From Escherichia phage PSD2002, in sequence record OK335775.1: a stretch of 64,000 bases of DNA; one strand, written 5' to 3'. Each line of letters starts with the position of its first letter. The stretch's first letter is position 1. The notes beneath the pieces are model-generated. The model was not told the DNA's origin and ran no database searches. It saw nothing but the letters and a program-made list of their open reading frames with translations. Shown piece after piece: positions 6,405 through 64,000 of this stretch. A program made the position numbers and the translations under genes.

Positions 6405-8528
6405 ATGGAAAATTTAAATGAGGTTTTTGATAGTGATTCCGCTAAAAACTATCCAGTAACAAATCTTAAACCGGGTTCCGGTATTCCACAGATTTTCTCT
6501 ATCCAAGCACCAGGTAATGATAATCTGGTTGCTCGTATGGTATCTTATGCGTCTCAAGGAGACGCTATTAAAATGGTTAAGCCGGGCGACAAATATGTTC
6601 ATGTTATCTTAATGAGTTTATCTGCTAAAGGCGCTCCGGCAGAACTCAAGGGTGGTTTGGGTACCGATCCACTCGGTACACTGAACACCATTTTCGATAC
6701 CATATATGAACAAATAAACAAACTTAAAATGGACGCGGTTTTGTTCCGTTTCCCTACTAAGAAAATGAAAGGTAAAGGTCCTACCGTTCAGCGCGTATTA
6801 GCTCGCTTGGCTATGGCTCGTACCGGTGGTAAGTTTAAAGTTGTTGACGACATGTTCCAATTCAGCGGAAAACATACCTACGTTCTTTTAGTACGTCGTG
6901 GTGCTAGTATTGAAGATATCAAGGGTATGCCTGAAATTAATGCCGATCTTTATACTAAAGTTGAGTCTAAAGTTGGCGAAGTGTATGTTTCTAAGAAAAC
7001 CGGCCAGGCTGTAAGTAAGGTCGAAGCCGTAGCGGCATCTATTGCACAAGTTGAAGAGAAACGTACTGATAAGGCTGTCATTACTCGTACTAAGATTTCG
7101 CGTCGTATGGCAGCGGCGGCGCAGTATTCTACTGCTGAGCCTGAAACTTTGTCCTCTAAAGAATTGCAGGTTTATAACGAGTTTGAAGCTTCTGTACCGG
7201 TTCACACGGCTGAAGGCCCTGAGAACGAAGGTATTGAACAGATTAGTCAGAACTTTAAAAAAGGTGCCATTACTAAAATGCGTCAGGCTTCTCAGTTTAA
7301 ATCTAAGAGCGAGGACCTTGCCAACTTTAGATACACTATTGCTCTCACACACGCTTTAATGACTGATAGTAAATTTAAACTAAATTATGCTAATAGAGAT
7401 AAACAAGGGTTTGAAATTTACTCTAATAATATGGCATTTTTTAATACAGAAGTCGATAGACTTTTAAGTGGCCTTTCGCAAATCAATACAACCAATAGTC
7501 TGGATATTATTAAGAAAATTGTTAATAACCTGAGTACCCGTTTTAAGGGTTCCCCTTCAGAGAAAGCATCTAGAATTGCTTTCGCTATGGAAGCCGTTTA
7601 TAAACTGGTTAACGATTCTATTAGTGATGCATATGCTTATTCAGGCGAGCTCATTAAACCTAAGGACCTAACCAAAGATGAAAGCAATGCTATTATTGAA
7701 TATTGCGCGGCTGAATATGCTCCTATGAACTTATTCCTTTTAGGTAAACCTGAATCCGAAAACAATACAACGGCTATTAAATTGATTAAGGATTTAGACT
7801 CAGCATTTACTAAGGGTATTAAACTTCCTAAGGGTACTATTTTGTATCGTGGTCAGGATTTGCCATACAAAATTCTGCGCCATAATATCGATAACAAAAC
7901 ATTTTACTTTAAGAACTTTGTGTCAGCCTCATTAAAGCCTAACATCTTTGGTGAATTCGGTAAAAATTATATGGCCCTCGACAACCAAGCCGTTTTTGTT
8001 GGTGGTGAAGGTTCTTTGTCCTCCGCTGATGAGTTGTTTAAATTGGCTAGTGGTAGTTCATCTGATGTGGGTGAAGTCGATGACGAAGAGGTAGAATGGG
8101 AAGAAGACGAGTTTGGTAATCCAATTGCACCTGAAGGTCCTGCAGATAGAATTGCTGAAATTGGTATGGTTATTCGAGGTGCTGAAGCAGTTAAAGTTAT
8201 CGCTCCTGGTGACCTTACAGAATATGCCGAAGAAGCAGAAATTATCCTTCCGCGTGGATTATTGTTGAAGGTTGATAAAGTAGCGGCTTTTGCCATGAAT
8301 GATAGAGTATCTCACAAATACCTTATGGAAGCTACCGTAACGCCTCCTTCAGAGCTCAGCGAATCTGTTTACGATGGTGACCATTTGATGGAAACTGGTG
8401 AAGTTCGCCTGATGGATGGATTTAGTCAATTCTTGGTTAATGAATCCGTTTCTGAAAGCAACGAAGCTATGGAAATCCTTGCCGCGTCTTTGGATATCTC
8501 TTCTTTATCAAATAAATTCAAAATGTAG
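6405..8528 (+). CDS. alt: Alt-like ADP-ribosyltransferase, paralog 3 (707 aa)
   Basis: Same N-terminal block; C-terminal LYRGQ, FVSASL, EAEIILPRG; acidic insert (VDDEEVEWEEDEF). Confidence 0.8.
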   Translation: MENLNEVFDSDSAKNYPVTNLKPGSGIPQIFSIQAPGNDNLVARMVSYASQGDAIKMVKPGDKYVHVILMSLSAKGAPAELKGGLGTDPLGTLNTIFDTIYEQINKLKMDAVLFRFPTKKMKGKGPTVQRVLARLAMARTGGKFKVVDDMFQFSGKHTYVLLVRRGASIEDIKGMPEINADLYTKVESKVGEVYVSKKTGQAVSKVEAVAASIAQVEEKRTDKAVITRTKISRRMAAAAQYSTAEPETLSSKELQVYNEFEASVPVHTAEGPENEGIEQISQNFKKGAITKMRQASQFKSKSEDLANFRYTIALTHALMTDSKFKLNYANRDKQGFEIYSNNMAFFNTEVDRLLSGLSQINTTNSLDIIKKIVNNLSTRFKGSPSEKASRIAFAMEAVYKLVNDSISDAYAYSGELIKPKDLTKDESNAIIEYCAAEYAPMNLFLLGKPESENNTTAIKLIKDLDSAFTKGIKLPKGTILYRGQDLPYKILRHNIDNKTFYFKNFVSASLKPNIFGEFGKNYMALDNQAVFVGGEGSLSSADELFKLASGSSSDVGEVDDEEVEWEEDEFGNPIAPEGPADRIAEIGMVIRGAEAVKVIAPGDLTEYAEEAEIILPRGLLLKVDKVAAFAMNDRVSHKYLMEATVTPPSELSESVYDGDHLMETGEVRLMDGFSQFLVNESVSESNEAMEILAASLDISSLSNKFKM

Positions 8529-8558
8529 TTTACAACACCACAAGGATGTGGTACTATT
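8528..8558 (+). promoter_or_regulatory. sigma70-type early promoter (GTTTACA -35, 17-bp spacer, TACTAT -10) with an inverted repeat in the spacer
   Basis: GTTTACA at 8528-8534, TACTAT about 8552-8557; inverted repeat ACCACA-agga-TGTGGT at 8537-8552. Confidence 0.45.
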
Positions 8559-8876: not shown

Positions 8877-8883
8877 ACCCCTA

Positions 8884-8909
8884 AAGGAGAGCATATGCTC
8901 TCCTTTTTT
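8884..8909. terminator. palindromic hairpin GGAGAGCATATGCTCTCC + T6 between convergent genes
   Basis: 18-nt perfect palindrome followed by TTTTTT; lies between the + ORF ending 8876 and gp54 ending 8911. Confidence 0.6.
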
Positions 8910-59810: not shown

Positions 59811-59820
59811 GTACAGATAA

Positions 59821-59841
59821 GGAGCCACAAAGCTCCTTTTT
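59821..59841 (+). terminator. stem-loop GGAGC-CACAAA-GCTCC + T5
   Basis: 5-bp GC-rich stem followed by TTTTT. Confidence 0.5.
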
Positions 59842-60426: not shown

Positions 60427-60457
60427 GTTTACAACGGGCTTTAGCCGTGATACTATA
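60427..60457 (+). promoter_or_regulatory. early promoter cassette (GTTTACA ... TGATACTATAGCCCTATCAAAACAA)
   Basis: Duplicate of the cassette at 59859-59903. Confidence 0.55.
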
Positions 60458-60492
60458 GCCCTATCAAAACAAATGAGTGAATGGAGAATAAA

Positions 60493-61351: not shown

Positions 61352-61525
61352 ACCAAATTTGACCAGACTATTCCTAAAAATAGTAATATGCTTTAAGAGT
61401 AATGTGTTATTATTACTCTATCATTAATACCCTCTATTACCAAAGGTTCTTCCCTCAAAGAACCTTTCATAATAGACAAGGTCTATTAATCAAACTTACT
61501 TTACTTAATTTTATTTGAGGTGTTT

Positions 61526-61797: not shown

Positions 61798-61874
61798 GGC
61801 CCTGTAGCTCAATGGTTAGCAGCAGTCCCCTCATAAGGGAAAGGTTACCAGTTCAAATCTGGTCCGGGTCACCA
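61798..61874 (+). tRNA. tRNA with CAU anticodon (Ile2 or Met), non-canonical D-stem
   Basis: Hand fold: acceptor GGCCCTG/CCGGGTC (one mismatch, one G-U), anticodon loop CTCATAA, T-arm ACCAG-TTCAAAT-CTGGT, encoded CCA. Confidence 0.6.
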
Positions 61875-61879
61875 ACTAT

Positions 61880-61954
61880 GTCCCGCTGGTGTAATGGATA
61901 GCATACGATCCTTCTAAGTTTGCGGTCCTGGTTCGATCCCAGGGCGGGATACCA
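61880..61954 (+). tRNA. tRNA-Arg (anticodon UCU)
   Basis: Hand fold: acceptor GTCCCGC/GCGGGAT, D-loop AATGGATA, anticodon loop CTTCTAA, T-arm CCTGG-TTCGATC-CCAGG, encoded CCA; T4 also encodes a tRNA-Arg(UCU). Confidence 0.75.
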
Positions 61955-62866: not shown

Positions 62867-62888
62867 AAAGCCCCAGATGGGGCTTTTT
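62867..62888 (+). terminator. stem-loop AGCCCC-AGAT-GGGGCT + T5
   Basis: Perfect 6-bp stem followed by TTTTT directly after the stop codon. Confidence 0.6.
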
Positions 62889-62979
62889 GGTTAACTTAGA
62901 GAAATATATGAAACTTTTAAAATAAAGCTATGTTAGCCTTCCACATAAACCCATTCCGGTTCTACAAGAACTGATTCTA

Positions 62980-63007
62980 GGCCCTTCCGAAAGGTTGGGC
63001 CTTTTTT
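62980..63007 (+). terminator. terminator GGCCCTTCCGAAAGGTTGGGCC + T6 (repeated element)
   Basis: Identical to the element at 16963. Confidence 0.6.
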
Positions 63008-63030: not shown

Positions 63031-63060
63031 GTTTACACCTCCTTTAAACATGATACTATA
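63031..63060 (+). promoter_or_regulatory. early promoter cassette (GTTTACA ... TGATACTATAGACCTATCAAAACAA)
   Basis: Third copy of the conserved early-promoter core. Confidence 0.55.
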
Positions 63061-63094
63061 GACCTATCAAAACAACAGAGTGAAGGAGAGTAAA

Positions 63095-63358
63095 ATGGAT
63101 AATTATGGTGAATTGTTTAATTTCTTTATGAAATGCGTTCCGGAAGAATTTGGTGCTACAGTTAACGATATTAAAGTTATCGGTCCTGAACACCCGGTGT
63201 ATGAAACCTATGCAGTAATGGGTAATGAAGATGGACAGTGGTATACAATTAAAGTTGTGATTAATATGTTCTCAGCTGAAGGTTACGCCAAATCGTCTAC
63301 CAAAGTTTACCATGGTAATGATTTTGATGCAGAAAATTATTTCAATAATATGAAATAA
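63095..63358 (+). CDS. hypothetical protein (87 aa)
   Basis: Track ORF 63080..63358 begins at GTG; ATG at 63095 follows GAAGGAGAG. Confidence 0.5.
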   Translation: MDNYGELFNFFMKCVPEEFGATVNDIKVIGPEHPVYETYAVMGNEDGQWYTIKVVINMFSAEGYAKSSTKVYHGNDFDAENYFNNMK

Positions 63359-63361
63359 AAC

Positions 63362-63397
63362 GTTTACATGGGCTCATGATTAAGATATTATGAGCCC
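63362..63397 (+). promoter_or_regulatory. early promoter (GTTTACA, 17-bp spacer, TATTAT) with 8-bp inverted repeat across spacer and -10
   Basis: GGGCTCAT at 63370-63377 pairs with ATGAGCCC at 63390-63397. Confidence 0.45.
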
Positions 63398-63416
63398 ATA
63401 ATTTGAGGAGAACATA

Positions 63417-63815
63417 ATGAATATCGAAGATAAAGAAATGCAAGAGTTGTATAATTCATTAACACCTGAACAACAAAAATATGCCAAAGAACTAGAGAAA
63501 GCTCTTACTTTCAACTTGGCAAAAACTGATTGGGCCGCGATGTATGAAGAAAAAACTAGATTAGAAATTGAAGCTGCTGAGAGAAATGAATGGGTTGTCG
63601 AAACCAAGATTTCTGATGGTGGTTGCTCTGTTGAGGTGTCAGCTGTAGTTAAAGGTACCCATGGCGAAAAATCATGGGGCTGGCATAATGAAGCAAACAA
63701 ATGTATTGTTCTCTCAACGTCAAAAACTTATGGGCAAAGGGCTCCTGTATCCAAAGCTATTATTAAGCAAGCTCAATGGGAAGCCAATGAAATTTGCCTC
63801 GCAAAAATGAAATAA
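63417..63815 (+). CDS. hypothetical protein (132 aa)
   Basis: Track ORF with ATG and GAGGAG RBS; no recognisable motif. Confidence 0.5.
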   Translation: MNIEDKEMQELYNSLTPEQQKYAKELEKALTFNLAKTDWAAMYEEKTRLEIEAAERNEWVVETKISDGGCSVEVSAVVKGTHGEKSWGWHNEANKCIVLSTSKTYGQRAPVSKAIIKQAQWEANEICLAKMK

Positions 63816-63819
63816 AAAT

Positions 63820-63855
63820 GTTTACAACCCTCAGAGGACAGGGTATAATGTCCTC
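63820..63855 (+). promoter_or_regulatory. early promoter (GTTTACA, 17-bp spacer, TATAAT) with 7-bp inverted repeat flanking the -10
   Basis: GAGGACA at 63834-63840 pairs with TGTCCTC at 63849-63855. Confidence 0.45.
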
Positions 63856-63891
63856 ATGGATTATAAATCTTAATCAACTGAAGGAAATACT

Positions 63892-64000
63892 ATGAACACT
63901 TTAAAGAAAATCGTTGAATTCATCCGTTCTAAACTGGGTACCGCAATGACTCAGAACCTGTCAATCGAAGACCAATACACCAAAGCGGCTTCTACCCTGA
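63892..64000 (+). CDS. hypothetical protein, 3'-truncated at window edge
   Basis: ATG at 63892 after GAAGGAAA; frame open to the end of the window ([16 protein letters not shown]...). Confidence 0.4.

Follow-up and report, generated by a model that had tools for sequence, protein, structure and literature searches.

The closest described counterparts of the elements considered here are the PeSL (promoter-early stem-loop) elements of T4-like phages, which were reported in RB49 and phi1 as intergenic units comprising a stop codon, an AT-rich region, a sigma-70-type early promoter, a stem-loop and a Shine-Dalgarno (SD) sequence with a start codon (Arbiol et al. 2010, PMC2839356). The PeSL stem-loop lies most often between the -35 and -10 elements or overlaps the -10 element, and PeSLs, for which an association with indels and mini-circles is reported, cluster upstream of ORFans in hyperplastic regions (PMC2839356). 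Comeau et al. 2014 (PMC4122927) extended PeSLs to PST/T4, with the consensus TTTACW-N17-TAYWAT, and to nt-1/KVP40. Across these two papers JS98 is named for the gene 43 region alone, and neither the present locus nor its genus is described; Comeau et al. 2014 (PMC4122927) mention neither e.6-e.8 nor JS98. We analysed positions 63362-63855 of a 64,000-nt stretch of Escherichia phage PSD2002 (OK335775.1; the whole stretch is hereafter called the window), where a reading made from the letters alone (the sequence-only reading) had placed two early promoters with their -10 elements inside inverted repeats. Our analysis confirmed both promoters and both repeats. We consider it fairly probable that the two sites are PeSL-type composite cassettes, in which the hairpin would form a 3' boundary on RNA read through from the upstream gene. 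The promoter/hairpin finding is real, yet the kind of element is already published: the 'common regulatory logic' that the sequence-only reading had proposed is the PeSL (PMC2839356). The four features concerned are as follows.

63362-63391, + strand: early promoter 1, with the -35 element GTTTAC(A) at 63362-63368, a 17-bp spacer and the -10 element TATTAT at 63386-63391; predicted start at ~63398
63820-63849, + strand: early promoter 2, with the -35 element GTTTAC(A) at 63820-63826, a 17-bp spacer and the -10 element TATAAT at 63844-63849; predicted start at ~63856
63368-63399, + strand: stem-loop 1, with the 5' arm at 63368-63380, a 6-nt loop at 63381-63386 and the 3' arm at 63387-63399; 13 bp including one G.U pair (RNAfold)
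63834-63855, + strand: stem-loop 2, with GAGGACA at 63834-63840, the loop at 63841-63848 and TGTCCTC at 63849-63855; 7 bp

The two promoters are the top sigma-70-like/T4-early matches within 59.5-64 kb (10/12 consensus positions for promoter 1 and 11/12 for promoter 2), and both are consistent with the T4-type early consensus TTTACW-N17-TAYWAT (PMC4122927). For promoter 1 the -35 element GTTTAC occupies 63362-63367 and the 17-bp spacer is counted from TTTACA. AT-rich DNA lies upstream of each promoter (aaataaaac and aataaaaat, respectively), and the orthologous sites have been annotated independently, as a 'predicted early promoter' in fPS-2 and as a 'sequence similar to consensus host promoter' in ATK48. 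Both cassettes are intergenic, the stop codons before them ending at 63358 and 63815 and the start codons after them lying at 63417 and 63892. All of the PeSL defining features that can be tested on sequence are present here. The likeness covers the composite intergenic layout, the stem-loop within or overlapping the promoter, the many copies upstream of small genes of unknown function, and the adjoining insertions, deletions and replacements between close relatives. There are also differences. RB49-type PeSLs have polyG/polyC stems and a TTGACA -35 element, whereas the stems here are of mixed sequence and the promoters of the T-even type (GTTTAC...TAnnnT). In the PST/T4 PeSL figures the stem-loop stands just upstream of the promoter, whereas the stem surrounds the -10 element at the present sites, as it also does at the T4 e.8/e.7 junction. 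Terminator activity and mini-circles have been demonstrated solely for the RB49/phi1 PeSLs.

At site 1 the arms GGGCTCAT (63370-63377) and ATGAGCCC (63390-63397) lie where the sequence-only reading had put them, within a longer repeat that has perfect 10-bp complementarity between ATGGGCTCAT (63368-63377) and ATGAGCCCAT (63390-63399). The accompanying claim that these arms flank the -10 element did not stand, since the arms of the full stem span 63368-63380 and 63387-63399 and the -10 TATTAT therefore lies mostly within the 3' arm. At site 2, GAGGACA and TGTCCTC surround the -10 TATAAT as had been described. Stem 1 folded at -20.1 kcal/mol (z = -6.6), and none of 200 shuffles folded equally well (RNAfold). 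Stem 2 (-11.7 kcal/mol) was unremarkable on composition alone (z = -1.8, 12/200 shuffles), and gave p about 0.002-0.004 when the -10 element was fixed and the other positions were shuffled. The window contains 100 perfect 7-bp inverted repeats (loop length 3-12 nt), compared with ~50 in shuffles, and three perfect 10-bp inverted repeats, site 1 among them. A candidate origin in a known RNA family was rejected, as neither hairpin matched Rfam 15 at E<=1; the sole significant matches were two tRNAs at 61798-61951.

The commonness of 7-bp repeats in the window and the unexceptional composition score of stem 2 would both suit the view that the repeats have no function and arose by chance, or were carried along by promoter-cassette copying, and cassettes have clearly been copied around the genome. 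Comparison with relatives bears on this directly. The end of the window is the e.8/variable gene/e.6 region of a Dhakavirus-like T4 relative: it is 98% identical to Escherichia phage WG01, further close Dhakavirus matches are QL01, MX01 and Bp7, and its T4 counterpart is the e.8/e.7/e.6 region. We compared the intergenic regions of 11 annotated relatives and of further IMG/VR and metagenome contigs; the relatives retrieved were about 25 of ~900 INPHARED records matching the region, and when metagenomes and IMG/VR were scanned for e.8 3'-end orthologues, 9-13 and 12 loci were recovered, several of them unrelated. A pattern scan for the e.6 start gave mostly chance matches.

Dhakavirus and Tequatrovirus relatives also have stem 1, with paired variants in place of the window's ATGGGCTCAT/ATGAGCCCAT: ATAGG.../...CCTAT in T4 and RB51, ACAGG.../...CCTGT in ime09 and ACGGG.../...CCCGT in dhabil. 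Two positions thus occur as TG/CA, TA/TA, CA/TG and CG/CG variants among relatives, and Bp7 has a G.U. Over 12 distinct orthologous sequences 97.5% of cells were paired, compared with 23-46% in slid registers, and both sides had changed in two of the ten pairs (UA/CG and AU/GC). The arms of stem 2 vary more widely, from GAGGACA/TGTCCTC in the window to GGGAACA/TGTTCCC in P896, GAGAGCA/TGCTCTC in ATK48 and GGGAGTA/TACTCCC in fPS-2, and in WG01, paralogous cassettes of the stem 2 type that precede other genes have GGGACCA/TGGTCCT and GGGAGCA/TGCTCCT. For the e.6-type stem, 92% of cells were paired in 14 sequences (35-49% in slid registers), 6/8 pairs had changed on both sides and none of 500 shuffles reached the observed covariation; an 11-sequence version gave 88% of cells paired and 5/7 pairs changed on both sides. 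The inverted repeats of orthologous promoters are therefore kept across several T4-like genera with compensatory substitutions, so that the outcome named as refuting the sequence-only reading, a lack of conservation, did not occur and its interpretation is supported; the stems, beyond the promoters, are under selection across genera. Copying would keep sequence and would not yield such compensatory double changes, so covariation disfavours the view that the repeats have no function, which we regard as very improbable. The same substitutions bear on the possibility of a palindromic operator, in which the two arms would be half-sites for a dimeric regulator encoded by the phage or the host. Repressor operators typically show such dyad symmetry about the -10 element; however, the complementary changes between relatives preserve pairing and not sequence, and the arms within one genome are wholly different (GGGCTCAT, GAGGACA, GGACCA, GGTAGGACT, CGAGAATC, GAGGGCC and GGTCTAT). 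With no common arm consensus, we rejected the operator palindrome as the least probable explanation of all.

The sequence-only reading had pointed to a similar element at 8528-8558 and suspected recurrence, which is borne out in the wider set of early promoters. We scanned the window and the remaining WG01 early regions for a GTTTACA-like -35 element, a 16-18-bp spacer, TAnnnT and a downstream SD with an open reading frame (ORF), which left 35 promoters after three implausible matches had been discarded, and tested each for a hairpin with the -10 element kept fixed and other positions shuffled. A core hairpin at p<=0.05 was found in 16/35 early promoters, compared with ~2 expected (Stouffer z = -11), which also argues against repeats without function. 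Thirteen of the 16 enclose the -10 element and three lie within the spacer. The 13 enclosing hairpins end 2-9 nt past the -10 element (6-8 nt at sites 1 and 2), at or before the expected start. Cassettes of nearly identical sequence stand before different genes, among them WG01 55.2, ORF226 and e.6. The earlier-noted element has its hairpin in the spacer.

8528-8557, + strand: the 8528 element, an early promoter between alt and alt.-3, with ACCACA at 8537-8542, TGTGGT at 8547-8552 and the -10 element TACTAT at 8552-8557

The last base of this hairpin is the first base of the -10 element, and at -6.9 kcal/mol it is weak alone; it covaries as well, in that its orthologues keep a stem with other bases (ACCAC/GTGGT in the Klebsiella phage kv_tblp8, ACACA/TGTGT in ATK47 and GCAC/GTGC in VR25). 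A further hairpin at window 60436-60461, GGGCTTTAG/CTATAGCCC, encloses a -10 element with one mismatch (-11 kcal/mol, p = 0.002-0.007) and contains GGGC...GCCC, as does stem 1.

The inverted repeats could act in DNA, where a hairpin or cruciform would modulate promoter opening or shut-off, or a structure-specific recombination protein would mobilise the cassettes. The repeat is centred on the -10 element, deletion breakpoints fall within the cassettes, and the PeSL authors speculate on a stem-loop-targeting protein, citing T4 deletions with GGGC/GCCC inverted repeats (PMC2839356); this motif was reported at T4 deletion endpoints by Mosig et al. 1998, as cited in PMC2839356, and stem 1 contains GGGC...GCCC. 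However, the folding energies point to RNA. Among the 16 hairpins the sense RNA was more stable than the antisense by a mean of 2.4 kcal/mol (Wilcoxon p = 0.016), because G.U pairs favour the sense strand only, whereas the DNA folds of the two strands were equivalent and weak (-9.9/-9.5 and -6.0/-5.6 kcal/mol). This strand signal was drawn solely from the wider promoter set and not from single positions of stem 1. The sense bias and the weak DNA folds favour an RNA structure made from the coding strand. The perfect arms are also 8-12 nt apart, a separation unfavourable for cruciform extrusion, and the breakpoints lie in direct repeats (stop codon plus -35 element, or SD/spacer), outside the stems; homologous recombination requires no hairpin. 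Action in DNA is thus unlikely in our view.

The reading that we favour, a PeSL-type cassette with a 3'-boundary hairpin on read-through RNA, would work as follows. Each cassette carries a strong T4-type early promoter read by the host sigma-70 RNA polymerase, and its stem-loop is packed into promoter positions on which no sequence constraint acts: the spacer holds the 5' arm, the loop or the 3' arm takes in the -10 element, and the discriminator holds the 3' arm, which ends at ~+1. Since the promoter's own transcript is predicted to start at the 3' edge of the stem, it would be without the hairpin, which would be contained solely in RNA from polymerases arriving from the upstream gene. There, the hairpin would most likely be the 3' boundary of the upstream message, possibly through weak attenuation or pausing of read-through or, alternatively, as a barrier to 3'-to-5' exonucleases once the AU-rich or GGAG leader had been cleaved. 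Both routes would make an insulated unit of each small early gene. Both E. coli intrinsic terminators and intercistronic mRNA-stabilising hairpins (REP-type 3' barriers) place a stable stem-loop just after the stop codon, at the 3' end of the cistron. The present elements likewise have a stem-loop after the stop codon; they differ from intrinsic terminators in having no U tract, and from REP elements in that the arm sequence is particular to each copy and a promoter is joined to it.

Several results weigh against a 3'-boundary role, or limit how firmly it can be argued. No U tract follows stem 1 (AAUUUGAGG; tail AAUUUGAG) or stem 2 (AUGGAUUAUAAAUC; tail AUGGAUUA), and the sequence after stem 1 varies among relatives while the stem is kept, T4 having ACAAAUGAGG. 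A terminator scan for at least five T in 8 bases made no call at either site, yet found terminators at 62867-62886 and 59819-59838, and the annotators' terminator predictions in fPS-2 and ATK48 pass over the orthologous sites. Without a U tract efficient intrinsic termination is therefore unlikely, and it is by inference that we assign a boundary role to the hairpins. In the literature on T4 transcript 5'- and 3'-end maps we found nothing usable for this region. The covariation of stem 1 is the weaker of the two, its observed value being reached in 28/500 shuffles, and at its position 2 relatives show U.G and C.A intermediates in about equal numbers, so that stem 1 itself gives no strand signal. 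A convincing stem is missing from the e.6 promoters of ime09, RB51 and AUBRB02, and that of T4 reaches only -2 kcal/mol; the structure is therefore favoured and not obligatory. Finally, by automatic call an embedded hairpin was found in 2/9 promoters with an upstream canonical GC-stem-plus-T-run terminator and in 14/26 without one, which is not significant (p = 0.135). When the terminators were curated by hand, the counts were 1/8 and 15/27 (p = 0.047). That embedded hairpins are rarer where a canonical terminator precedes the promoter is thus suggestive only; the association would fit a hairpin that provides the upstream unit with its 3'-end element and occupies the sequence-tolerant promoter positions (spacer and discriminator).

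The original PeSL interpretation goes further, taking the hairpins as efficient intrinsic (Rho-independent) terminators embedded in the next promoter. In its favour, the RB49 PeSL211/210 stem-loop lowered lacZ as much as rrnB T1 (PMC2839356), stem 1 matches nearby bona fide terminators in stability (-20 vs -16 kcal/mol), and embedded hairpins tend to occur where there is no separate terminator. However, the 13 hairpins around a -10 element all lack a following U tract and have A-rich tails; the consensus scan that finds the true terminators skips these hairpins; and after stem 1 it is the stem that is conserved and not the sequence beyond it. As the main reading, the intrinsic terminator was rejected for want of a U tract, and we hold it to be unlikely, if the foremost of the alternatives.

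Canonical terminators do occur elsewhere in the window. The e.8 promoter has no embedded hairpin and is preceded by tandem canonical T-run terminators at 62867-62886 (-15.8 kcal/mol) and 62985-63002 (-16.0 kcal/mol). After alt.-3, AAAGGAGAGC atat GCTCTCCTTT at 8883-8906 is followed by TTTT and forms a canonical terminator; it is among the three perfect 10-bp repeats. The intergenic region after the trna.2 homologue (61390-61467) contains two stable hairpins without T runs, AGAGTAAT/ATTACTCT and AAGGTTCTT/AAGAACCTT, the latter being the perfect 10-bp repeat at 61442.

A further alternative is that the hairpin controls downstream translation on read-through RNA, following the logic of T4 e, soc, 49 and I-TevI, in which the promoter's own transcript alone would be translatable. 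In those T4 cases (reviewed in PMC3014915), as here, the promoter lies inside the hairpin, transcripts from upstream fold, and the own transcript, to judge from predicted starts, lacks the 5' arm and escapes the structure. They differ in that their 3' arm covers the SD or AUG and the internal promoter is a late one, whereas at the present sites the discriminator forms the 3' arm, the ribosome-binding site is left free and an early promoter is involved. The translation signals concerned are as follows.

63405-63410 and 63417-63419, + strand: Shine-Dalgarno GAGGAG and ATG of the 132-aa gene; unpaired with the hairpin, the SD being essentially free in the read-through RNA fold
63881-63885 and 63892-63894, + strand: Shine-Dalgarno AAGGA and ATG of the e.6 homologue, which extends past the end of the window

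With stem ends at 63399 and 63855, the 3' arms stop 5 nt (site 1) and 25 nt (site 2) upstream of the SD, and both SD and AUG are unpaired at the two sites in the read-through RNA folds. On these folds SD sequestration was rejected for both sites, and translation control by their hairpins seems to us improbable. SD sequestration holds for neighbouring promoters, and the pairing of spacer with SD in promoters of the same family (63039-63044 with 63083-63088, and 9-12-nt complements in WG01) speaks for this alternative, as does the location of the promoter inside the structure.

The neighbouring promoters show a second architecture, in which an anti-Shine-Dalgarno sequence (CTCC...) in the spacer just after the -35 element has 9-12-nt complementarity to the downstream SD region and the start site would fall between the arms. 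It is seen in the window at 63031-63097, where CTCCTT (63039-63044) is complementary to AAGGAG (63083-63088), and at the WG01 loci L073, L090 and L091. The WG01 spacer/SD pairs include denV and regB (CTCCTGTAG/CTACAGGAG), nrdC.8 (CTCCAGTAG/CTACTGGAG, a compensatory variant), ORF12 (CTCCTCATG/CATGAGGAG) and alc. Complementarity was higher between a spacer and its own SD than in non-cognate pairs (permutation p = 1e-4). This pairing resembles the T4 e/soc/49/I-TevI logic, yet is found at early promoters. Tentatively, and with more doubt than belief, we raise the possibility that T4-like phages use the promoter spacer systematically as a 5' RNA arm, which would give a 'transcript-origin' code: read-through RNA would fold differently from promoter-started RNA, the -10-enclosing hairpins without a U tract would mark a 3' boundary, and the spacer/SD pairings (WG01 denV, regB, alc and nrdC.8; window 63031) would silence read-through translation.

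The gene between the two cassettes varies among relatives; this gene and the direct repeats at the cassettes are as follows.

63350-63368, + strand: direct repeat copy 1, consisting of the last e.8 codons, the stop codon and the -35 element, ATGAAATAAAAcGTTTACA
63807-63826, + strand: direct repeat copy 2, consisting of the last slot-gene codons, the stop codon and the -35 element, ATGAAATAAAAatGTTTACA
63417-63815, + strand: variable slot gene, 132 aa, of unknown function, bounded by the two promoter cassettes

The slot between e.8 and e.6 is hypervariable, with at least five different occupants among relatives, two kinds of clean loss and one case in which e.8 is followed by another promoter and another gene. 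In T4, RB51, AUBRB02 and ATK48 the slot gene gives way to unrelated or partly related ones. The occupants include a 399-nt ORF in the window, WG01, ime09 and P896; e.7 (336 nt) in T4; a 519-531-nt gene of PHROG 6869, probably related in its C-terminal part, in RB51 and AUBRB02; and a frd.3-like 228-nt gene in ATK48. In L015, a 155,101-bp IMG/VR contig, the slot gene is deleted and promoter 2 follows immediately on the e.8 stop codon, with the junction inside the direct repeat ATGAAATAAAA(n)GTTTACA (63350-63368 / 63807-63826). Such a clean deletion is the product that would be expected if recombination between neighbouring cassettes excised a mini-circle, as described for PeSLs. In five other loci (L013, L018, L077, L078 and L083) the slot gene is missing and promoter 1 is followed by a truncated promoter 2, and in three more (L020, L075 and L082) a different promoter follows e.8, with the spacer hairpin ACACCA/TGGTGT. 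This variation is the pattern published for PeSL-mediated modular shuffling. The near-identical cassette sequences (stop codon, -35 element, -10 element and initial transcribed region) may double as short recombination homologies, which would make the gene between them a swappable or deletable module. At the T-even IP locus, as far as it is described in PMC2839356 after Repoila et al. 1994, repeats with T4-type early promoters similarly flank shuffled small genes; it is a different locus, and its stem-loops are described there as weaker, AT-richer and of variable size.

Two observations on other promoters touch on the same subject. A near-identical -10 element and initial transcribed sequence, TGATACTATAGaCCTATCAA(A/C), occurs at window 25058, 59859, 60427 and 63031 and in many WG01 promoters, so that homologies of 20-30 bp are spread over the early regions. 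The e.8 promoter (window 63031-63059, compared with 4521-4550 of L001) has the -35 element, -10 element and flanks of WG01 and a different spacer, cctcctttaaacatga in place of WG01 ctttcgtagaacatga. The window's spacer is similar to those of further WG01 promoters (ctttaaaca/cgtga), a likeness suggestive of exchange between promoter cassettes. A difference of ~490 bp from WG01 upstream of e.8 was also considered as a cassette-mediated event and rejected, as its junction is inside ORF138 and not in a promoter cassette; a 5-codon remnant ORF, ATGAAACTTTTAAAATAA at 62908-62925, represents an internal deletion of the 555-nt WG01 ORF138.

The gene order at the window end is e.8 (63095-63358), promoter 1, the 132-aa ORF (63417-63815), promoter 2 and the e.6 homologue, whose start is at 63892 and whose 3' part lies beyond the window. 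The statement of the sequence-only reading that small genes of unknown function lie downstream was correct: the 132-aa ORF downstream of promoter 1 belongs to PHROG 8232 and the e.6 homologue to PHROG 1203, both of unknown function. All three proteins, including e.8, fall in PHROGs of unknown function, and none had a significant Pfam match. Further upstream are genes for tRNA-Met (CAT; 61798-61874) and tRNA-Arg (TCT; 61880-61954).

Taken together, what is new here is the covariation across genera, the sense-strand bias and the absence of a U tract. The covariation provides independent, sequence-based support for the PeSL idea, and the missing U tract suggests that the published 'terminator' label may misfit elements of the T-even type; current understanding is not overturned. 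If the transcript-origin idea were true, a genome-wide code would separate immediate-early from delayed-early expression of each small gene. For phage engineering, the cassettes mark natural insulated insertion sites. For the biology of T4-like phages, elements of this kind would explain how a promoter, a transcript boundary and a recombination homology are packed into the 55-75 bp between small early genes, and why the slot between e.8 and e.6 holds a different gene in almost every lineage.

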